Positions 727 to 21,556 of a stretch of 33,616 nucleotides of DNA are shown piece after piece. Position numbers and translations under genes: made by a program. Below the pieces are notes generated by a model, which was given only the letters and a program-made list of their open reading frames with translations, made no database searches and had not been told where the DNA came from. This stretch comes from a virus (lineage: Duplodnaviria > Heunggongvirae > Uroviricota > Caudoviricetes). The DNA lies in IMG/VR virus record IMGVR_UViG_2778261222_000001, positions 1-33,616 of that record, one strand, 5' to 3'. The number at the start of each line of letters is the position of its first letter. Positions within the stretch are counted from its first letter, which is position 1.

Positions 727-832
727 TCGATATGACAATGTAACGTTTACAGCGAGGACATTTGATTTCTATATGCTTAAAGCCTCCTTTAAACAGTAAT
801 TTATTGCAGTTTTTACAGCGAACAGAGTCCAT
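647..832 (-). CDS. com: Com zinc-finger translational activator of mom
   Basis: Translation from the internal ATG at 830-832 gives [15 protein letters not shown]...CPRCKR..., which matches my recollection of Mu Com (Cys4 zinc finger, about 61 aa); AGGGGGAA Shine-Dalgarno 5 nt upstream; overlaps the mom start. Confidence 0.9.
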
Positions 833-11157: not shown

Positions 11158-11353
11158 GCTGTTTCTCCAGTTGCTTTATCAGGCGGAACAGCTGCCTCAG
11201 GGGCAACTGTTCCAGGTACTGAATGCTGAATCGCTGAGACAGGTTAACCAGCAGGTTCATCAGTGCCGCCGCCAGCGGCATCAGTTCGCCCCCGCGTTGC
11301 CACCTCCTCAAGCATGTCATCCAGCGCAGCAGCTTTCGTGCTGATAAGCTCAA
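11144..11353 (-). CDS. Possible frameshift-extension ORF of the tail assembly chaperone (T-like)
   Basis: Open frame overlapping the 3' end of the chaperone gene in the +1 frame and ending 13 nt inside the tape-measure start; position equals the conserved G/GT frameshift location. Confidence 0.3.
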   Translation of the reverse strand: MSLSARKLLRWMTCLRRWQRGGELMPLAAALMNLLVNLSQRFSIQYLEQLPLRQLFRLIKQLEKQHGNR

Positions 11354-11997: not shown

Positions 11998-12006
11998 GCG
12001 GCCCCC

Positions 12007-13482
12007 TTAAAGTTTGAACTGAATCAGACCTGCCAGCACACGCAGCTGGTTCACCAGATTCGGGTGGCAGATAAAGTTCAGGCGGTTTTTATCACTGCTG
12101 TCGCGTGTCACCTGAAGAGTGTCCTTGTAATCGCTGAAGTTCTCCACAAGGCCCGCAGGAATAAGTTCGGTCTGGCAGATATCCAGCAGCTCTGCGGTGC
12201 ACAACTTCGGCGTCATCACCGGCTGACCGGCATCCAGTGAGTCCAGCACGTCATCATCTGCCAGCTTGTGGCGCGGATAACGGTTCGTGAAACGGTTCTT
12301 GATGATGTAACGGATACGGCCCAGCGTGGCGGGTGACTGCACATCAAGGTACGACACATCCGCATCACCGTACTGATTAACCCGGTACATGGTGATTTCA
12401 CGCTCTATGCAGACGTTATCCCCGGCGTCCACCATGTGTGTGGCAATGCTGTCATGCAGCAGCAGGTTACGTTCCGGCATATCCCAGCGAACATTACGCG
12501 CAGGCGGCAGAATGCCGGTCAGAACCAGCGTCTGAAGCGGACGCGCCGGATCAATGGCGAGGTAATACGCTGCCGTTGCGCCGTATGACGCGGCCCACAT
12601 CCACGCTGGGTGCGGTGACAGGTTGGTGCCGATACAGCTAATCAGCCAGTCATTGCGGGTTTCACCAAACGTGCCTGTCTCGCCGTGCGTGCCACGAAAC
12701 GCCGTCCACAGCTGCGCCTCCATCATTTTGAGCGGCCCCCAGCGGTTCAGCAGTTCATCACGCAGGGTGTTCAGGCTTTGCGCGTCGGTGAACGGGGCGA
12801 TGATATCGGTAAACCACTCCGGGCCGATGGCCGCAACGGCGTCTGCCATTTCCGGTGTCCCGGTGCCGCCGGTAAACGCGCTGGCTGTCACCTTCACACC
12901 TGCCGGGAAGGCTTCACCGGTGTAGTAGTTCAGGCGAACGTCGGCACCGTTGCCGGTGACACCGTGCCAGTTCACGGTCAGCTCCACGGTATCCGTGGCA
13001 TCATCCTTCACCGCAGCGGCCACCTGTGTGGCAGGCTTTTTCGTCACCGCATCAGCAATGGCTTTTGCAATGTTTTCCTTCGTAGCCCCGGCGCTCACGC
13101 TCACCTGAACGGACACACCGTTAATCAGCAGTGCCACCGTTCCGGCCTCTGTTGCTGTCCCCAGCACGGTCAGCGTGGCTTTTGCAGCAGCGCCAACAGG
13201 TGCGGCAACCGGCATTGCCCAGGTTTCCGTGTACGTGTTGGCACGACGCAGCATTTTGAGCATTTCAGCCAGCATCGACCCTTTGCCATAAAGCTGGTCT
13301 GCCTGGCTGTCACTGGTGATGCGGGTCAGTGACAGGGCGTCTGCGCTGCCGGACGATACCGCATGGCCCATGACCAGAATTTTTCGGCTTTGCGCGGATG
13401 CACCATCCAGCGCCTGAGAATTGTCGATATCGATCCAGACAAGCGGGACGCGGATATCATCAGGAATTGAACCCAGCGACAT
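12007..13482 (-). CDS. Tail sheath protein (Mu L-like)
   Basis: 491 aa; size and position match the Mu sheath protein. Confidence 0.85.
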   Translation of the reverse strand: MSLGSIPDDIRVPLVWIDIDNSQALDGASAQSRKILVMGHAVSSGSADALSLTRITSDSQADQLYGKGSMLAEMLKMLRRANTYTETWAMPVAAPVGAAAKATLTVLGTATEAGTVALLINGVSVQVSVSAGATKENIAKAIADAVTKKPATQVAAAVKDDATDTVELTVNWHGVTGNGADVRLNYYTGEAFPAGVKVTASAFTGGTGTPEMADAVAAIGPEWFTDIIAPFTDAQSLNTLRDELLNRWGPLKMMEAQLWTAFRGTHGETGTFGETRNDWLISCIGTNLSPHPAWMWAASYGATAAYYLAIDPARPLQTLVLTGILPPARNVRWDMPERNLLLHDSIATHMVDAGDNVCIEREITMYRVNQYGDADVSYLDVQSPATLGRIRYIIKNRFTNRYPRHKLADDDVLDSLDAGQPVMTPKLCTAELLDICQTELIPAGLVENFSDYKDTLQVTRDSSDKNRLNFICHPNLVNQLRVLAGLIQFKL

Positions 13483-13682
13483 TATTTTTTCCCTCTGGTT
13501 TTGTTGCTATTTTTCGGAAGCGCGGTTATTTCCACATCTCCCTCGGCTTCACGGCGCAGCCAGTAAGCGCAGACGTCGAGACGTTCCCCGTCCGGGGATA
13601 AATGCGCGCCATCCGGTTTACGGACACGAACGCTTTCCCGCGCTGGCTTAATCAGTTTCTGTTCCATCGTCACCCCGTACAT
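13482..13682 (-). CDS. Small Mu-like head-tail region protein
   Basis: 66 aa ORF just upstream of the sheath gene; alternative ATG at 13665-13667. Confidence 0.4.
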   Translation of the reverse strand: MYGVTMEQKLIKPARESVRVRKPDGAHLSPDGERLDVCAYWLRREAEGDVEITALPKNSNKTRGKK

Positions 13683-14259
13683 GGATCACGTCGTTAATTT
13701 CAGTGTGTTCGCCGCAGCGCAGCGTTGCCCCGAGGCGCAGGAAGTCCGGGAGCGCGGCGAGATCAATCTCTTCATCCAGCCGGAATTCCTGCTCCCACGT
13801 CACCGCCCACATGGTGACACCCAGCCCGTCGAGGCTGACGGAGTAAATGTTGTCTGCCCGCACATCAGCAGCCATGCGTTCAGCCCCCATGCCCGCTGTG
13901 GCATCCGACGACAGCAGACGTTTGATCACCTTTCCGGCCAGCACTTCACAGCGCACGTCGCGGGAGTACCCCCACGAATCCGTCGCCATGATGTAAGCCA
14001 CCCAGGTAACCAGACCGGACAGCCCGCCGCGCGGGTTGATATCCCGGACACGCAGGGCCGCGACACGGATACAGCCAGTGCGACCGGACAGATAGCGCTT
14101 CACTTCTTCCGGGCTGTTGAACTGGCCGATGTGACGCTCCACCACGTCGGCCCGGTCAGGGGTTTTCCCCTGAAGTGCTGTTTTCAGCCAGGCCACAATG
14201 CGCTCTGCGGCCGCGACGGTGCTCCCCGGTGTGCGCAGTTCAGGGCGTTGTTCTGTCAT
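13648..14259 (-). CDS. Mu-like structural protein (gp37-like)
   Basis: 203 aa; position in the head-tail joining block. Confidence 0.45.
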   Translation of the reverse strand: MTEQRPELRTPGSTVAAAERIVAWLKTALQGKTPDRADVVERHIGQFNSPEEVKRYLSGRTGCIRVAALRVRDINPRGGLSGLVTWVAYIMATDSWGYSRDVRCEVLAGKVIKRLLSSDATAGMGAERMAADVRADNIYSVSLDGLGVTMWAVTWEQEFRLDEEIDLAALPDFLRLGATLRCGEHTEINDVIHVRGDDGTETD

Positions 14260-14801
14260 GGCAGAACCTCCTTCCAGAAATGACTGATAACCTGTTGCAG
14301 CTCCTGCTGATTGGCAGAAGACAGCCCCAGAAATTCACGTTGCGGAATGTTCATCATGCGGTTATGTGCGCCGACGGTCTGCCAGACCGGATATTTCAGC
14401 GCCCGCCCGAAACACTGCGAGATAAGCCGTTTGTGGGCGCTGACCGGCACACTGCCGGAAAAGCCGTCATTCATGATGCGGGCATAATCCAGCGGTGAAC
14501 CGATACGCACCACGCGGTTTTCCACGATGTACTGGATACTCTCCAGCAGATGGCCTTCACCGCGCAGCAGACTCTGGTTGCCGTGGCGGGTCTTTTTGTA
14601 CCCGTCAGACCAGTCCGGCCAGCGTTCGCCACCCGGACTGGTTTTCTCATCGATGATGCGGCGGCGGGTCTGTGATTCCACCACCGCACCGATGCTTTCC
14701 AGCAGCTCTGCCTGCAATGAACCATCTGCCAGTTTTTCAACGGCGCGGCGGATATCCTCCAGCCGCTGGTCACCGCTGACCTGTACAGAAATCCCCATCA
14801 C
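14256..14801 (-). CDS. Virion morphogenesis / tail completion-like protein
   Basis: 181 aa; position in the head-tail joining block. Confidence 0.45.
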   Translation of the reverse strand: MMGISVQVSGDQRLEDIRRAVEKLADGSLQAELLESIGAVVESQTRRRIIDEKTSPGGERWPDWSDGYKKTRHGNQSLLRGEGHLLESIQYIVENRVVRIGSPLDYARIMNDGFSGSVPVSAHKRLISQCFGRALKYPVWQTVGAHNRMMNIPQREFLGLSSANQQELQQVISHFWKEVLP

Positions 14802-15235
14802 AGCACCCCTTTCAGGTTGTTACGGGTGAACAGCCGGGCATTGGCACCCACCACAATGATTTTCCCGTGGTCGGTTTCTGCCGGGGTGGCATACGTCGGC
14901 AGGCCCAGGTCACGGGTGCCGTTCGCCATCTCACGCAGGGTTTTAATGGCGTCGTCGTAGCGTTTCTGGATCAGCTCCGTGATTTGATTGTCACGCTCTG
15001 ACAACCAGTAAAAAGCCAGCGATACCGCCACGCGTTGCAGCGGACGCGGGATTTCTGTCACCCCCAGCGGCAGCTGGTAGCGGCGGGACAGAAACGAATC
15101 AATTTCCGCTTCGGCATCACTGATGGCCTGACGGATTTTGTCTTCATCCAGTCCGTTGGTTTCCCGGTTAATCGCCATGTTCCAGACAAGATTGCTGTCC
15201 GCGCGTAACAGGTCTTCCTGCGTGATGTATCCCAT
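14798..15235 (-). CDS. Head-tail connector-like protein (Mu gp36-like)
   Basis: 145 aa; position after the capsid module. Confidence 0.45.
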   Translation of the reverse strand: MGYITQEDLLRADSNLVWNMAINRETNGLDEDKIRQAISDAEAEIDSFLSRRYQLPLGVTEIPRPLQRVAVSLAFYWLSERDNQITELIQKRYDDAIKTLREMANGTRDLGLPTYATPAETDHGKIIVVGANARLFTRNNLKGVL

Positions 15236-15546
15236 CAGCCTTTCTCCGCTTCCCGGACAATCAGATTCGGCTCTGCCATCAGGCGGGTGGCAACCGCAGC
15301 GGTCACCGCCACATCCTCACCGGCATGAGACCAGAAACGGCCACAGCGCCAGAACCCGTTTTCAGACACGGCCCGGACGTTCAGCCGGACAGGGGCGTCA
15401 CCCTGTACAGCAACCGGGTCTTCAGCCGGACGTGGTTCATTCGCCTGACCGTCAGCCACAATAGCGTCTGCCAGCGGTGCCGGGTTTTCCTGTGCTGCGC
15501 TGTTCTTTGTGTTTTTCGTGCTTTTGGTTCCTGCTTTTTCACTCAT
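15235..15546 (-). CDS. Hypothetical protein downstream of the major capsid gene
   Basis: 103 aa; ATG at 15544-15546; low-complexity N-terminus. Confidence 0.45.
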   Translation of the reverse strand: MSEKAGTKSTKNTKNSAAQENPAPLADAIVADGQANEPRPAEDPVAVQGDAPVRLNVRAVSENGFWRCGRFWSHAGEDVAVTAAVATRLMAEPNLIVREAEKG

Positions 15547-15550
15547 GGCT

Positions 15551-15600
15551 CTGCCTTTTAAAAGGCAGTTAAAAGGGCATTCACAGCACCTTTTAACTGC
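15551..15600 (-). terminator. Overlapping alternative hairpins between the capsid gene and the next gene
   Basis: Perfect palindrome ctgccttttaaaaggcag (15551-15568) and an 11-bp-stem hairpin gcagttaaaag...cttttaactgc (15565-15600) share the ctgc bases. Confidence 0.35.
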
Positions 15601-15617
15601 GGTTTACGGATGAAGGT

Positions 15618-16520
15618 TTATGCCGGGGTGGTGATGTACGGGCTGTCCACGATCTCCACATCCTTGTACCAGATGTTGGAATCGCCGCCGTTAACCAGCA
15701 TGGCGTCAATAATGAGCTTCGCGTCCGCACGGTTTTTCGGCCCCACCACAAGGGTGGTCGGGCGGATGCCCAGTGGTTCACCGTTGGTACCCTTCATGCC
15801 CCGCAGCAACTCATTGGCTTTTTTGTAGTTCTCCACCGTCAGTGCCGCACGGGAACCGACGGCGGTCTGCCAGAAGCCGAAGCCTGCATTACAGCGACCG
15901 TCCACCCCGTACAGGAATTCGTTATTCTTGAAGGTGTGCTCGCTGTTCAGATCGTCCAGGGCTTCAAACTTAAAGGCGCGTCGCGTCTGCCAGATAATGG
16001 GTTTCAGTACCTGCGACTCATCAATCAGGAACCACGGCTCACCCTTGTCTGATGCCGGGGTGCCGACAACGTTGCTGTACGTGCCGTCACCCAGCGGGTG
16101 GTCTTCATCAAAGAAGTTCTGGCCGTCAAAGCACAAAGTTTTGAATCCGGCACACAGCAGGGCGTAACACAGCTTGTCCGGGAACACGGCTGTCATACGT
16201 CCATAGCGTTCAGCAGTAATGCTGTACTGACCAATCTGGTCATCTTCAATGTGTTCGCGCTTAACGCGAATGGAACTTTCCCAGAGTTTGTTGGTGATGG
16301 TGTAACCATAACCGTCCAGCGTTGCCAGCTGACGCTCACCGACCCATTCTTTGATGTCCGGTAAATCTTTCATCCAGCCGTAGGTGTTGGAGGCTGACGA
16401 ACTCGGCACCTCAGAAGCAATGCGATTCCACTGCGGTTCGACACCACTCAGTCCACGGGTAAAGGCGGCGCTCAGGCAGGTGGTCAGTGCATGAAGGATT
16501 TCGGAATTGACTGCTCCCAT
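15618..16520 (-). CDS. Major capsid protein (Mu T-like)
   Basis: 300 aa; follows the protease/scaffold gene with a TGATG overlap. Confidence 0.8.
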   Translation of the reverse strand: MGAVNSEILHALTTCLSAAFTRGLSGVEPQWNRIASEVPSSSASNTYGWMKDLPDIKEWVGERQLATLDGYGYTITNKLWESSIRVKREHIEDDQIGQYSITAERYGRMTAVFPDKLCYALLCAGFKTLCFDGQNFFDEDHPLGDGTYSNVVGTPASDKGEPWFLIDESQVLKPIIWQTRRAFKFEALDDLNSEHTFKNNEFLYGVDGRCNAGFGFWQTAVGSRAALTVENYKKANELLRGMKGTNGEPLGIRPTTLVVGPKNRADAKLIIDAMLVNGGDSNIWYKDVEIVDSPYITTPA

Positions 16521-17482
16521 CAGTTATTCTCCTGTTTTGGTTTAGCGGCGAGGAACTCTTCCCCGGTAATACCCATGCTGCGACACATCGCCAGTTCGGC
16601 GTCGGTCAGTGTCTCCGCGGGTTTATCCTTGCCCTGGCTGGGCTTGTCGTTGTTCACCAGCGGCTGTGTGCCTTTGGTGTATTCCGCAAACTGTTTGCGG
16701 CCTTCTTCCGTGCGGCAGGTGGCAAGGAACATGTCACGGTTTGCCGGGGCCACTTTTCCGGCTTCGATGGCCGCATCCACAAGCGCCCCGGCTTCCTTCT
16801 CTTCCAGTTGCTGAAGGCGTTTTTCTGCGGTTTCGGCACGGTTCAGTGCCAGATTGTGGGTTTCCACCGGCACAAACTTCGTCAGATCAGGTGTCTGTGC
16901 GCGGTTCAGCGCCACCTGTTCGTTCTCCTGAAGTTGTTTAATGGCAGCCACGGTATCGTCCACCGTGGCGGATTCAGCCAGCCCAAGCAGGCCGGTGATT
17001 TGCACAGGTACTGTCATCGGGTTTTTCTCCGTATTCAGTGCAGGAAAATCCAGGTTAGGTTTGTTGGTCAGCCCGACGCTGGACAGGCGCGTCACCACAC
17101 CGTCTGCGTCAAAGAAAAACGCCGGGCTGTAATAGCGGTAGCGACGCTCACTCAGCATCCACCGGGCGTACTCGCTCCAGACAACACGGCCTTCAATGGT
17201 GCCGCCATCCGTCACCCGCAGTTCTTCCACCCAGCCATACGCCGGGGCTTCATCACCGCGTTGCCCTTTAATTTCGGTGGCATGTTCAATGTCCACCGGA
17301 ATTTTGATGTCGGACGAACGGGCGATCACCTCATGCGGATTGCGGTTAATCCACGTCCGTCCATCGCGCCCGGTAAACTCACCCGCAGGGACGAGCTCAA
17401 GCCATTCCGGCAGTTGAGCAGGTGTCAGCTCAGGGATGGGTTCTGGCAGGGAAAAACACAGCGCCAGCAGTTCCGGTTGCAT
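16520..17482 (-). CDS. Prohead protease / scaffold protein (Mu I-like)
   Basis: 320 aa with a coiled-coil C-terminal half; GGAG Shine-Dalgarno 7 nt upstream of the ATG at 17480-17482. Confidence 0.75.
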   Translation of the reverse strand: MQPELLALCFSLPEPIPELTPAQLPEWLELVPAGEFTGRDGRTWINRNPHEVIARSSDIKIPVDIEHATEIKGQRGDEAPAYGWVEELRVTDGGTIEGRVVWSEYARWMLSERRYRYYSPAFFFDADGVVTRLSSVGLTNKPNLDFPALNTEKNPMTVPVQITGLLGLAESATVDDTVAAIKQLQENEQVALNRAQTPDLTKFVPVETHNLALNRAETAEKRLQQLEEKEAGALVDAAIEAGKVAPANRDMFLATCRTEEGRKQFAEYTKGTQPLVNNDKPSQGKDKPAETLTDAELAMCRSMGITGEEFLAAKPKQENN

Positions 17483-17530
17483 GTCAGTCTCCGTCGTTTG
17501 GGGTTACCGACGGTCAGTATGCGGAAGGCA

Positions 17531-17556
17531 GAAAAAAAGCCGGATTTACCGGCTTC
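17531..17556 (-). terminator. Rho-independent terminator (minus strand), copy 1 of a repeated element
   Basis: On the minus strand: 7-bp stem aagccgg, loop taaat, stem ccggctt, followed by seven T; lies between the F-like gene and the protease gene. Confidence 0.6.
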
Positions 17557-17695
17557 ACTGAAAACAGGGAAATACCCCCTTCAAAACCACTTCAAAAACG
17601 CCACAGCACCTTCAAAAAAGTCAGAATGCACATTCACGCCATCAGAATAAAAAACGCGATTCTGGTGCGTTTCAGGGGGATTTACGGCGGGAGGG

Positions 17696-18460
17696 TTACT
17701 CACTGTCAAAACGGGCCTGTTTTGTCGCCAGCTGGCGCGCCAGCTCCTGCTCACGGTTTATGCCGGGATTGTAGTTCCAGCCCGGATCAATCCCTTCCGG
17801 CACATCTTCCTCTTCGCCCGTACGTTTGTTCACCCAGCGGACAGTTCTAATTTCCGGCGCTTCGGTGTGAATGGTGCCCTGTGCCGCCAGTTGTGCATAT
17901 TCACCACGGCTGACCTGACGGATGGTGCATTTGCAGCCCCAGCCGTTAGGGGCAAAATGCGTCTGCCAGAACGGATGATCTACCGGCAGACACAGACGCG
18001 CCCATTTCACATGCTCCGCCCGGTGCTCGCGGGATGGCCCCAGCTCATAAATCAGATACGGCATGGCCCGCTTTGTCCGCTGAATGCGTTCCCACTGGCC
18101 CGCCGCGCGGGCGGTGCGCATGTTGGTGTCAAAAATCGTGCGGAGGCGGCGGTCGCTGCCCAGCTGTACGGTGCGCCTTTCACCCGTCAGCGGATCATCC
18201 ATCTCCTGAACGCCCCACCATCCGCGTTTTATCAGCAGCGGTTGCAGCGCCTCCCGGAACTCGCTGAACGTCTGCCCGCTTTGCAGGGCGTCTTCCACAA
18301 GGGCTTTCACATCCGACAACAAATCCAGTTGCAGCATTTTTGCCACGGTGAAGCTGTTCCGGTGCTCTTCCCGCCACACATCCCGGTAATCAAAACCGGG
18401 GCGCAGCTTCTTCGCCTTCAGCCACGCCAGCGCCTCTTTCGGGATGAGAGTTTCACGCAT
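17696..18460 (-). CDS. Head morphogenesis protein (Mu F-like)
   Basis: Position after the portal gene; likely start is the ATG at 18458-18460 with GGGGGA Shine-Dalgarno (track ORF extends to 18517). Confidence 0.65.
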   Translation of the reverse strand: MRETLIPKEALAWLKAKKLRPGFDYRDVWREEHRNSFTVAKMLQLDLLSDVKALVEDALQSGQTFSEFREALQPLLIKRGWWGVQEMDDPLTGERRTVQLGSDRRLRTIFDTNMRTARAAGQWERIQRTKRAMPYLIYELGPSREHRAEHVKWARLCLPVDHPFWQTHFAPNGWGCKCTIRQVSRGEYAQLAAQGTIHTEAPEIRTVRWVNKRTGEEEDVPEGIDPGWNYNPGINREQELARQLATKQARFDSE

Positions 18461-20024
18461 GACCGGTGTCCCCCAGCGCACGCGCCTTAAAGCACACCTC
18501 CGCCAGTTGCAGGGCAAAGTCGTCCGCGTTCAGCGTTTCCTGAAGCTCAGGCAGGCGTTTCAGAAAGTCATCAAAACTGTCGCATTCCTGCGCCAGTGTC
18601 AGCACCGGGTTCGTGAACGCTTCGCCTGTTTTCTGCCAGTCACGCAGGGCATCATCCACCATCTGTGCCAGTTCGTCGGGGTGTTCCCGGTTCAGGGCGA
18701 CGCGCTCGCGGTTCATCGCCACATCACCTGACATTCCGGCAGAAACCGGATGCAGAACATCAGCCCCTTCGTCCGGTTCAGCAAGGCCGAACCGGTCCCG
18801 CAGCTCCGATTCCTGAACCCGCATCCCCCGGTCAATCAGCGGCACCAGAGCATCTGTCAGCGCCTTCAGATCTTCTGCTTCACTGATACGCAGAACAACA
18901 CGGGGGTAGTGCGCCTGTGGCCCGTAGTTGGCCTCGATATAGGGACGCACCAGATATTCATTCAGCGTGTTAGCCAGCTGTCGCGCGTCCCAGCGCACAA
19001 TGTCCATGCGCACCTGATTGTGCACGTCCGCCTGTGAACGCGAACTGCCGTTATCCGTGGTCATGGTCTGCCCCAGCACAGCCTTACTGATTTGTGCATC
19101 ACACCATTCCGCCATTTCACGGAACAGTGCGCCGCCGTTATTCCGGCTGGCGGTTTCCTTCATCTCCAGTTGCATGGACTGCGGAATGGCACACCCTGCA
19201 TCCGAGGCAATGGAGGCAATCGCATCAATCAGTACGCGGATTTGCTCCTCCGTGGCGTTGGGACCGTATTTCCCCACCGTCACCGGAATGCCGAATTTTT
19301 CCGCGAATGCCCACCAGTCACGCACGGTATAGGATTTCAGCATGTACATCACCGCCACCAGACGGGCCAGACCGTTACGCAGCGGCAGACCGGATTTCAG
19401 GCGCGGCTGGTGAACAATGAATTTTCCCGGTGTCAGCGGTACGCCATCCACCGGTTCGTCATCCGTCAGCAGGCGGAACTGGCGCAGCGTGGGTTTTTCG
19501 GCTTTCAGAAAACGGGGATCAACCCACTCATAATCACGGGGCACCCAGTGGTTATTGCGGGTGTTCCACAGAATTTCACAGACCGCCACGCCTTTCCCCA
19601 GCCCGTCAAGCAGATCAAACATCAGCTCGGGGATTTGCGGCGCGGCCATCAGCTCACGGATGGCATCCGCCAGCTGCACATCGGCATCGTCGTCACTGGC
19701 AGCCACCACCACCGGCTCGATACCCGCCACCGTCAGCTTGCGGGTGCGCAGTACCGAGGCGTAATGCAAATCGCGTTCTTCCATCTCTTCGGCAAGGATA
19801 AAAAAATCACGCGTGATGCCGTCGGCGGCATTGCGCAGAATGCCTGCCAGCCTGCCGGGATTCAGCCCGGAAGCAATGCTGATGCCCGGCGAGGCCGAGC
19901 GCACGCCAGCCTGACGCGGACGGGCCTGTATTTCATCGAGCGTCTCTTTTTTGAGCCTGTCTTCCTCACCGGTTGCCGGGTTCAGCAGACGGCGAACGGC
20001 CCCGGCCAGTTGTTTCAGGTTCAC
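18453..20024 (-). CDS. Portal protein (Mu H-like)
   Basis: 523 aa; GTG start overlapping the terminase stop (GTGA) with GAGGGAGG Shine-Dalgarno; position after the large terminase. Confidence 0.85.
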   Translation of the reverse strand: MNLKQLAGAVRRLLNPATGEEDRLKKETLDEIQARPRQAGVRSASPGISIASGLNPGRLAGILRNAADGITRDFFILAEEMEERDLHYASVLRTRKLTVAGIEPVVVAASDDDADVQLADAIRELMAAPQIPELMFDLLDGLGKGVAVCEILWNTRNNHWVPRDYEWVDPRFLKAEKPTLRQFRLLTDDEPVDGVPLTPGKFIVHQPRLKSGLPLRNGLARLVAVMYMLKSYTVRDWWAFAEKFGIPVTVGKYGPNATEEQIRVLIDAIASIASDAGCAIPQSMQLEMKETASRNNGGALFREMAEWCDAQISKAVLGQTMTTDNGSSRSQADVHNQVRMDIVRWDARQLANTLNEYLVRPYIEANYGPQAHYPRVVLRISEAEDLKALTDALVPLIDRGMRVQESELRDRFGLAEPDEGADVLHPVSAGMSGDVAMNRERVALNREHPDELAQMVDDALRDWQKTGEAFTNPVLTLAQECDSFDDFLKRLPELQETLNADDFALQLAEVCFKARALGDTGHA

Positions 20025-21556
20025 AGTAAGCCTCCCTCATTTTTCAGTCCGCGTGTCAGCTTCATCTGGCGGCGCACGTTGCGTTCTTCCGGTTTCGCCG
20101 GGCGGTTCAGGCGGTGCAGCTCGTAACGGTGGCAGTCATCCTTGCTGGCAAGGAAGCCCAGGAAAATGGCCACAGCGGCGTCGCCGTGACGTTTGTGACC
20201 GTCGCTGCCTTTGGTTCGTGAATCATCAATGCCGGGAACGCCACGCAGTAACTGAATGGCCCCGAGGTCATTGATCACGTCTTCATGCTTCGGAAGGATC
20301 AGCTCATCATCTTCAAACGCTGCACGGAACCGGGGCATGTTTTCGCGGTAGAACGCCACGGACAGCATCACCTGTTCCACTTCATCGCCGTACCGCTCCG
20401 CCGCCTGTTCTGCCAGATACTGACCGTTCCCCCGCGCATCCATTTTGATACCGTCACGACGGGGCAGACGATCGCAAAGCCAGAACAGCACCTGCTCCTG
20501 CTGTTTAAACGGCACATTGCCAAGCTCAACCAGGAACGGCACCTCGCGGGTGGTGTCATCGTTCACCGTCACCGGGGCCAGTACGGTCAGGTCACCCGAA
20601 CGCGCAAAGTCTTCCCCCAGACAGTGGCGCAGATTCTTCGGGAGTTTTTTCAGCTTGGGACGCACCACCGTTTCCAGCCATTCCCGGATATCTGCCCGGC
20701 GCTGGCTTTCCGTCAGTGCGTTAAATTCCGGTGTACCGGTAAAACGCAACACTTTTCCGGTTCCACGGGCCGCACGCTCACGCAGTGAGCGGGGGATATA
20801 CGTGCCGCCGCCGTTTTTCGGGACGCAGTAATACTCCTCCAGCGCATCTTCGCGGGTGGCGGTATTTCGCAGCAGGCCTTCTTTCCATTCCGCCTCGGCT
20901 TCCGGTGACCACACCATGCCGCGCACCTGACAGATACGCCGGTACAGCCCGTCATTGCAGGCGTCATCCAGCGTGATGGTGTGAATGCGGTAATCCCGTT
21001 TTCCTGCGCGGCTTTCCTGAATCAGCTGGTTAAACAGGTTGTCCACGCCGTCATGGGTGGAAATAAGGCGAATTTTGCCGCCCCATGTTTTCAGCGGCAG
21101 CACAGCCTTCAGCAGCTCGTCCAGTTTTTCATGGAACGCGGCCTCGTCGATGGTGACATTCCCCTGCATCCCGCGAATGTTGCTCGGGTTGCTGGACAGT
21201 GCCTTGACCTTAAAACCGCTGGCGAAGTACACGACGAACGTCAGAATGTCCTTGTCTTCGTCGGTGATCACTTCCTCGCAGATTTCTTCCGCTGCCGCAT
21301 TAAACGCTTTCGCCCACATCGCCACGGCGTCGATAAATTCGCGGGCCATCTCCTTATTCGAACCGATATAAAAGTGATCGCGCCCGCCGTCTTCCTTCTT
21401 CAGTGATGCCGTCAGTGCCGCATCCGCAGCTTCCGCCCAGGTTAAACCGGTACGGCGGGATTTCTCGGCGATTTTCAGGTCGGCATCATCCGCCACCCAG
21501 CGTTTCTGATACGGCAGCAGAACATCATATTCACTGAACGTGTCCATTTGTGTCAT
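20021..21556 (-). CDS. Terminase large subunit
   Basis: 511 aa; ATGA overlap with the upstream small-subunit-like gene. Confidence 0.85.
   Translation of the reverse strand: MTQMDTFSEYDVLLPYQKRWVADDADLKIAEKSRRTGLTWAEAADAALTASLKKEDGGRDHFYIGSNKEMAREFIDAVAMWAKAFNAAAEEICEEVITDEDKDILTFVVYFASGFKVKALSSNPSNIRGMQGNVTIDEAAFHEKLDELLKAVLPLKTWGGKIRLISTHDGVDNLFNQLIQESRAGKRDYRIHTITLDDACNDGLYRRICQVRGMVWSPEAEAEWKEGLLRNTATREDALEEYYCVPKNGGGTYIPRSLRERAARGTGKVLRFTGTPEFNALTESQRRADIREWLETVVRPKLKKLPKNLRHCLGEDFARSGDLTVLAPVTVNDDTTREVPFLVELGNVPFKQQEQVLFWLCDRLPRRDGIKMDARGNGQYLAEQAAERYGDEVEQVMLSVAFYRENMPRFRAAFEDDELILPKHEDVINDLGAIQLLRGVPGIDDSRTKGSDGHKRHGDAAVAIFLGFLASKDDCHRYELHRLNRPAKPEERNVRRQMKLTRGLKNEGGLL

Follow-up and report, generated by a model that had tools for sequence, protein, structure and literature searches.

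A covarying RNA stem-loop between the major head gene and the gene-35 homologue of Mu-like prophages

The T-phi signal of bacteriophage T7, which follows gene 10, is a weak or partial terminator, and intercistronic hairpins that stabilise messages are exemplified by the REP element between malE and malF of Escherichia coli and by the hairpins of the puf operon of Rhodobacter. Systems of alternative hairpins are typified by trp-type attenuators and by the translational hairpin of com-mom in bacteriophage Mu. Furthermore, phages are known to tune expression by means of weak terminators, T7 being the model, and phage terminators that allow read-through have been mapped by ONT-cappable-seq (PMC9163698). 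In Mu itself, the slot between the gpT gene and the gp35 gene, i.e., between T (Mup34) and Mup35, contains a stem-loop (TTAAAAGGCGG-TTCAGA-CCGCCTTTTAA, about 20062-20089 of NC_000929) that lies two to nine nucleotides past the T stop codon, and the same element occupies the same slot in Yersinia Muvirus vB_YpM_3. The Mu record (NC_000929) leaves this stem-loop unannotated, and a literature search for 3' ends mapped after Mu T or after the capsid genes of Mu-like phages found nothing specific.

Here we describe the corresponding intergenic region of a complete Mu-like prophage, a type present in 48 of 5,426 complete E. coli genomes with 93-97% identity. The window, i.e., the whole stretch of 33,616 nucleotides that was analysed, contains the prophage in reverse orientation, with every long gene, from a transposase-like gene (33377-31290) to the tail genes, on the minus strand, so that the relevant RNA is the reverse complement of the strand given. 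The major head (capsid) gene (15618-16520, minus strand; stop codon TAA at 15620-15618) encodes a 300 aa protein of the Mu gpT family (Pfam PF10124, Mu-like_gpT, E = 1.2e-111), the RefSeq relatives of which in E. coli are annotated as "Mu-like prophage major head subunit gpT family protein". On its upstream side lies the Mu I protease/scaffold ORF (16520-17482, minus strand). The gene after the capsid gene (15235-15546, minus strand) encodes a 103 aa protein that belongs to phrog_10420 (E = 6e-53), a PHROG family of unknown function, and that has no match in Pfam and PDB sequence searches. Given its synteny with Mup35, and because some RefSeq E. coli genomes call it "HI1506-related protein", this gene is a homologue of Mu gp35 and Haemophilus HI1506; it is followed by the gp36 ORF (14798-15235, minus strand).

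The capsid gene and the gene-35 homologue are separated by 71 nt (15547-15617), one of two spacers longer than 20 nt in the otherwise overlapping head-tail block. The other such gap (86 nt, 11158-11243, minus strand) is located upstream of a 603 aa ORF, the probable tape measure, and could hide a frameshifted extension of the tail chaperone. A scan of positions 12000-20000 detected no sigma-70-like promoter and, since the sheath and tail genes lie downstream with overlapping junctions, substantial read-through of the T-to-35 spacer must occur. Farther upstream, a canonical intrinsic terminator is present at 17536-17556 (minus strand; GAAGCCGG-TAAAT-CCGGC followed by seven T), about 50 nt upstream of the protease (I) start and within a 213-nt gap (17483-17695) that also contains, upstream of the terminator, a second small hairpin (AGGGGGTATTTCCCT) and three direct repeats (TTTTGAAG) at about 17575-17625. 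Probably, this is where the preceding late unit ends, where the I-T unit is controlled, or both.

In the mRNA, the spacer reads UAA-ACCUUCAUCCGUAAACC-GCAGUUAAAAGG-UGCUGUGAAUGC-CCUUUUAACUGC-CUUUUAAAAGGCAG-AGCC-AUG. The capsid stop codon is followed by a pyrimidine-rich stretch of 17 nt (15601-15617, minus strand), which varies among the relatives in both sequence and length, and then by hairpin A (15565-15600, minus strand), in which the 5' arm (15589-15600) pairs with the 3' arm (15565-15576) over 12 perfect base pairs. Within the region between the arms (15577-15588), the folds place a 1-nt bulge (15588), two additional pairs (15587:15577 and 15586:15578) and a 7-nt terminal loop. A preliminary description of this DNA had recognised the hairpin and its position next to the capsid gene, both of which hold, but gave an 11-bp stem, one pair short of the perfect helix and without the two pairs past the bulge.

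Several properties set this hairpin apart from its surroundings. It is the longest inverted repeat that the repeat finder detects in the 33.6 kb window, and the RNA of the 71-nt spacer folds with z = -4.5 relative to dinucleotide shuffles, with 0 of 200 shuffles as good; the raw folding energy of the same tile is unremarkable (24% of the window tiles fold as well) because the window is richer in G+C, so that only composition-controlled comparisons single the spacer out. The stem has a stability of -19.1 kcal/mol; A-U pairs make up 7 of the 14, and next to the tail the helix amounts only to GCAG/CUGC. Rfam 15 gave no match at gathering thresholds over the whole window, and a sensitive pass produced a sole, sub-threshold chance hit (Flavo-1, 18.4 bits against 42).

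Two other possible features of the spacer were discarded. In many of the best folds, an outer helix joins the pyrimidine stretch after the stop codon to the Shine-Dalgarno sequence of the next gene, an arrangement that suggested translational coupling; it was rejected as a composition effect, the duplex energies of the 5' and 3' flanks being no better than those obtained with a shuffled 5' flank (34 of 34 distinct sequences, with mostly positive z values between -1.3 and +1.5). A role as an RNase III site was set aside because a stem of 11-14 bp is shorter than the typical substrates of this enzyme.

Searches based on the capsid protein yielded 13 genome loci and 72 viral-contig loci, with 29-100% protein identity. 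The E. coli lineage comprises 18 loci with 7 distinct spacers, in which hairpin A and the adjacent palindrome B (see below) are almost invariant, the substitutions falling in the 5' flank, in the region between the arms of A (two, one at the bulge and one in the terminal loop), and in the 4 nt that precede the ATG; when viral contigs were scanned with a pattern for more variants of this lineage, the same 18 loci and 7 variants came back. Hairpins with different stems are found at the same place in Klebsiella, Raoultella, Serratia, Brenneria, Kluyvera and Pluralibacter (the stems of other lineages include, e.g., GTTACAGCGGG/CCCGCTGTAAC, GTTACAGCAGG/CCTGCTGTAAC, GTTAAAGCGGG/CCCGCTTTAAC, CTTTATCGGGTG/CACCCGATAAAG and GCTTTAGCGGGTGT/ACGCCCGCTAAAGC). 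All 37 distinct spacers of the relatives contain a hairpin, with energies from -12.5 to -23.8 kcal/mol and 24 distinct stems. Across 24 non-E. coli sequences, 91% of the cells are paired, with double-sided changes at 7 of the 12 pairs (46 cells). Their covariation score of 0.48 compares with 0.03-0.10 for slid partners, and none of 500 shuffles reaches this value. The pairing is asymmetric with respect to the strand, with 10 G·U cells at five positions versus a single A·C cell, which favours an RNA on the mRNA (sense) strand. Hairpin A thus represents an RNA element, supported by covariation, that is common to Mu and many Mu-like prophages, occupies the only sizeable spacer of the head gene block and is absent both from Rfam and from the annotation of Mu.

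Beyond this set, most of the more distant gpT phages have strong hairpins after the capsid gene as well, as seen in Vibrio (-20 kcal/mol), Rhodovulum (-30), Ralstonia (-27) and, within the Paracoccaceae, a prophage (-34). This is not a universal feature, given that the Pseudomonas Casadabanviruses (MP22, D3112) have only weak structure at this slot; in three remote loci, the capsid gene is followed by almost no spacer.

The Mu stem-loop shares with A the TTAAAAGG/CCTTTTAA motif of the arms, and in both cases a TTTAAA leader precedes the Shine-Dalgarno sequence. The two are not identical: in place of the bulged GC pair and longer loop of the window, Mu has a GC core (GGCGG/CCGCC) with a 6-nt loop. 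Mu also lacks an extended palindrome B, and its Shine-Dalgarno sequence (AAGGAGGAG) is much stronger. A covariance model from which the E. coli lineage and Mu were left out identifies A, in the GUUA...UAAC register, as its top match in the window (15564-15602, minus strand), although the match is weak (7.5 bits, E about 0.5 in 3.5 kb); its top match in Mu is the hairpin downstream of T, also weak (11.3 bits, E about 0.05). The homology of A with the hairpins of other lineages appears to be carried mainly by position, by the shared GTTA...TAAC base of the stem and by Mu as an intermediate. To all appearances, hairpin A is the local version of a stem-loop kept by Mu-family phages in the interval that separates T, the major head gene, from the gene-35 homologue.

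The second structure of the spacer, palindrome B (15551-15568, minus strand; CTGCCTTTTAAAAGGCAG, listed for the minus strand as CUGCCUUUUAAAAGGCAG), is a perfect 18-nt palindrome, as previously described and as borne out by direct reading and by the repeat finder. It shares four bases with hairpin A (15565-15568), which are the last four nucleotides of the 3' arm of A (CUGC in the mRNA). As RNA, B would form a 7-bp stem with a UUAA loop (-9.6 kcal/mol for the isolated hairpin). Taken alone, B is weaker evidence, considering that a perfect palindrome of at least 18 nt occurs somewhere in 22% of dinucleotide-shuffled windows. The place where it occurs is nonetheless striking, as the T-to-35 gap contains all four copies of CCTTTTAA in the window, against 0.6 expected. 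Its 3' arm contains AAGG (15554-15557, minus strand), the probable Shine-Dalgarno sequence of the next gene, 7 nt before the ATG (15546-15544), in line with the earlier placement of the palindrome beside the ribosome-binding region of that gene. In the E. coli lineage, this Shine-Dalgarno sequence is weaker than in the relatives, which have GAGGAUGG at the aligned place.

The core of B, CTTTTAAAAG, aligns with CTTTAAAG in other enterobacterial lineages and with ATTTAAAG in Mu, each located directly upstream of the Shine-Dalgarno sequence, and in the E. coli lineage the flanks CTGC/GCAG lengthen the 6-8 nt palindrome of this leader to 18 nt. The AU-rich leader resembles those of strong phage ribosome-binding sites, e.g., that of T7 gene 10. 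Motifs of the TTTAAA type recur in the upstream flank, the loop and the leader before the Shine-Dalgarno sequence in many lineages. The full palindrome is confined to the E. coli lineage, being absent from Mu and all other lineages compared, and it is perfect in 16 of the 18 loci of that lineage; the only variant (L020/L021) gains a mismatch with no compensating change and also loses two outer pairs of A. The 7 variants of these 18 loci differ by few substitutions, and no evidence of selection on B as a structure was seen in them. We conclude that the E. coli lineage has elaborated the AU-rich leader (UUUAAA) of the ribosome-binding site of gene 35 into B, which does not amount to the alternative state of a switch. 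B may have arisen as a side effect of the repeated CCTTTTAA/TTAAAAGG motif, or else through palindrome "correction" by template switching, a known mutational route.

The latter process also enters a highly improbable reading of the locus, namely that the palindromes act as DNA, as the site of a dimeric protein or as a cruciform, or that B is a neutral template-switch "correction" of a quasi-palindrome. The perfect symmetry of B with its AT-rich centre and the existence of such a mutational route are compatible with this scenario, as are the hairpins of several relatives that are palindromic through the loop. In L012 and L050 (Brenneria and related), perfect palindromic symmetry extends across the whole hairpin after the capsid gene, loop included (GGGTGTTTAAACACCC in L050, e.g., TATCGGGTGTTTAAACACCCGATA). 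However, no second copy of B was found in the window or the prophage with up to 3 mismatches, the loop sequences differ between lineages, which argues against a shared protein site, and the asymmetry between G·U and A·C favours RNA of the sense strand.

The preliminary description proposed that A and B are mutually exclusive, so that only one can form at a time. Only the four outermost pairs of A compete with B, and the best fold with B forced (-22.1 kcal/mol) retains A, trimmed to 8 (+2) pairs and stacked on the full B, so that the two can coexist. The best fold with A intact has -26.0 kcal/mol, i.e., forcing B costs 3.9 kcal/mol, and folding of both conformers, the check suggested at the time, showed them to be unbalanced: in the intact RNA, the pair probabilities of A are 0.98-1.0, whereas those of B are about 0.02, a difference that persists from 25 to 42 °C (0.007-0.026 for B). 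B rises to about 0.95, with the Shine-Dalgarno sequence predicted to be buried, only when the 5' arm of A is missing or kept open. Even with A formed, the GG of the Shine-Dalgarno sequence is predicted to be paired by other weak local partners in every context folded, and B would therefore make no clear on/off difference.

These results bear on the proposal of a switch in which A and B alternate to attenuate transcription or to gate the translation of gene 35, a proposal that we regard as very unlikely. The location of AAGG inside B, the CUGC segment common to both hairpins, the dominance of B once the 5' arm of A is lost or opened and the near-constancy of B in the E. coli lineage speak for such a switch. 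As in trp-type attenuators and com-mom, two potential hairpins overlap, and a Shine-Dalgarno sequence is part of one of them. In the mRNA, the polymerase passes A (15600 to 15565) ahead of B (15568 to 15551), and A is complete before B is made, so that B, the competitor located 3' of the main hairpin, cannot pre-empt A during transcription and cannot be an antiterminator. The population of B is about 2% versus 98% for A, no leader peptide, ligand pocket or other sensor is evident, and B is not conserved, its one variant being an uncompensated mismatch. The hallmarks of an alternative-hairpin attenuator, i.e., two structures of comparable stability, a competitor that is made first and conservation or covariation of both structures, were not observed here. 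Viewed as a translational operator that sequesters the Shine-Dalgarno sequence, the site gives a mixed picture: AAGG is part of the 3' arm of B, B is populated to about 2%, the GG is predicted to be paired by other weak local partners in all folded contexts, and no signal that would open the helix was identified.

Elsewhere in the window, a small ORF at approximately 738-832 (minus strand) encodes a protein that resembles the zinc-finger translational activator Com of Mu. It lies upstream of an ORF (738-1) that runs off the end of the window and by position takes the place of mom. Close by, a perfect 12-bp hairpin (905-932; GACGATCGATAT-CATC-ATATCGATCGTC) is located just after the gene ending at 955.

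The notion that the locus is a partial terminator or attenuator that sets the ratio of capsid to downstream proteins fared differently in its two parts: the two-conformer attenuator is not borne out, whereas there is a selected RNA structure after the capsid gene, and a partial terminator or stability element that would set capsid versus downstream expression is the most reasonable reading of the sequence comparisons. The tail that follows A, CUUUUAAA, has 4 U in 8 nt, while about 5 or more are expected of a terminator, and a scan for canonical terminators did not call this site although it did call the one at 17556-17536, 2 kb away. Among 29 distinct hairpin/tail combinations of the relatives, the 8 nt past the stem contain between 0 and 5 U (median 2), and in many cases no U adjoins the stem, so that the conserved requirement is the stem and not a terminator tail.

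A different kind of element was observed in L078 (IMG/VR contig 3300025047_000001), a gpT relative with 45% identity, which has a textbook terminator (GCCGCC...GGCGGC followed by TTTTTT) about 24-60 nt past the capsid stop codon and is the only one of the relatives with a canonical T6 tract. Given that the enterobacterial relatives have at this place a hairpin that lacks a U-tract, the same slot is filled by different kinds of 3' elements depending on the lineage.

It is possible, albeit doubtful, that A is primarily a leaky Rho-independent terminator, such that part of the late transcripts end in CUUUU and read-through feeds the downstream genes. In this lineage, the stem is followed by C-UUUU-AAAA, in Mu the GC core is followed by UUUU, L078 has a full terminator at the same place, and the placing of weak terminators behind highly expressed genes is an established strategy of phages (PMC9163698). 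Against this possibility stand the failure of the scan at this site, the shortage of U in this tail and in those of the relatives, the AU-rich composition of the stem beside the U run and the conservation of the helix as opposed to the tail. The likeness to T7 T-phi and similar weak phage terminators goes only so far: in each case, a stable hairpin lies right after the capsid gene within a longer late unit in which read-through is needed, but hairpin A has no canonical U-tract, and none is conserved in its relatives.

Among the relatives, the distance from the hairpin to the start codon is constrained (17-26 nt, median 21), whereas the capsid stop codon lies at a freely variable distance from the hairpin (2-32 nt). 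This closer tie to the downstream start codon would be compatible with a role at the ribosome-binding site of gene 35 as well, and we considered the scenario in which the hairpin serves this gene as an insulator or 5' stabiliser located about 10 nt upstream of the Shine-Dalgarno sequence, either by keeping the ribosome-binding site in a defined context or by shielding a processed mRNA from decay that depends on the 5' end. In the Vibrio and Rhodovulum phages, too, the hairpin abuts the Shine-Dalgarno sequence. In either mode, this appears unlikely: a conserved ribosome-binding-site sequence in the 3' flank would by itself fix the distance, there is no known need for high expression of gp35, and no processing site is known.

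We therefore lean, with some reservation, toward an intercistronic mRNA barrier (or weak terminator) that would favour the message for the protease and the capsid over the distal message. Hairpin A is a stable stem-loop 17 nt past the capsid stop codon, it dominates the ensemble of structures, and what is conserved is the pairing on the transcribed strand, independently of the sequence. In this respect, it is similar to the malE-malF REP element and the puf hairpins, each of which is a stable stem-loop lacking a U-tract that is located past the higher-output gene of a polycistronic message and in which pairing rather than sequence is kept. The difference from the malE-malF REP element is that A is single-copy and has no REP consensus, and protection from exonucleases is putative here.

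Under the barrier hypothesis, A would act as RNA on the minus-strand transcript, within the late mRNA between T and the gene-35 homologue. The polycistronic late message would be cut downstream, and A would stall 3'-to-5' exonucleases, which we propose as the main mechanism. A minority of polymerases might be released as well in this lineage and in Mu, given the four U that come after the stem or form its end. As a result, the protease/scaffold and capsid segment would outlast or outnumber the distal segment. We infer from the position and conservation of A an effect on mRNA stability or termination and, through it, on the expression ratio; a stability barrier and partial termination are not separable on the basis of the sequence.

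In the E. coli lineage, one could additionally imagine that A works as an "anti-sequestor" for B: in the intact polycistronic message, A would retain CUGC, so that B could not close the ribosome-binding site of gene 35, whereas the loss or opening of the 5' arm of A, e.g., by endonucleolytic cleavage within or upstream of the loop of A, would allow B to shut (predicted in about 95%) and bury the Shine-Dalgarno sequence. This is a far-fetched scenario in our estimation. If it were true, processed downstream fragments would be translationally silent, which would amount to a processing-coupled shut-off on top of the conserved capsid-gene hairpin.

The finding leaves the general view of phage gene regulation unchanged, hairpins and weak terminators after capsid genes being a familiar theme. 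If, however, hairpin A sets the ratio of the protease and capsid to the distal products, it would account for the way in which one late transcript yields hundreds of capsid subunits and only a few of the neighbouring proteins, and it would also be a compact part for the tuning of expression inside operons.
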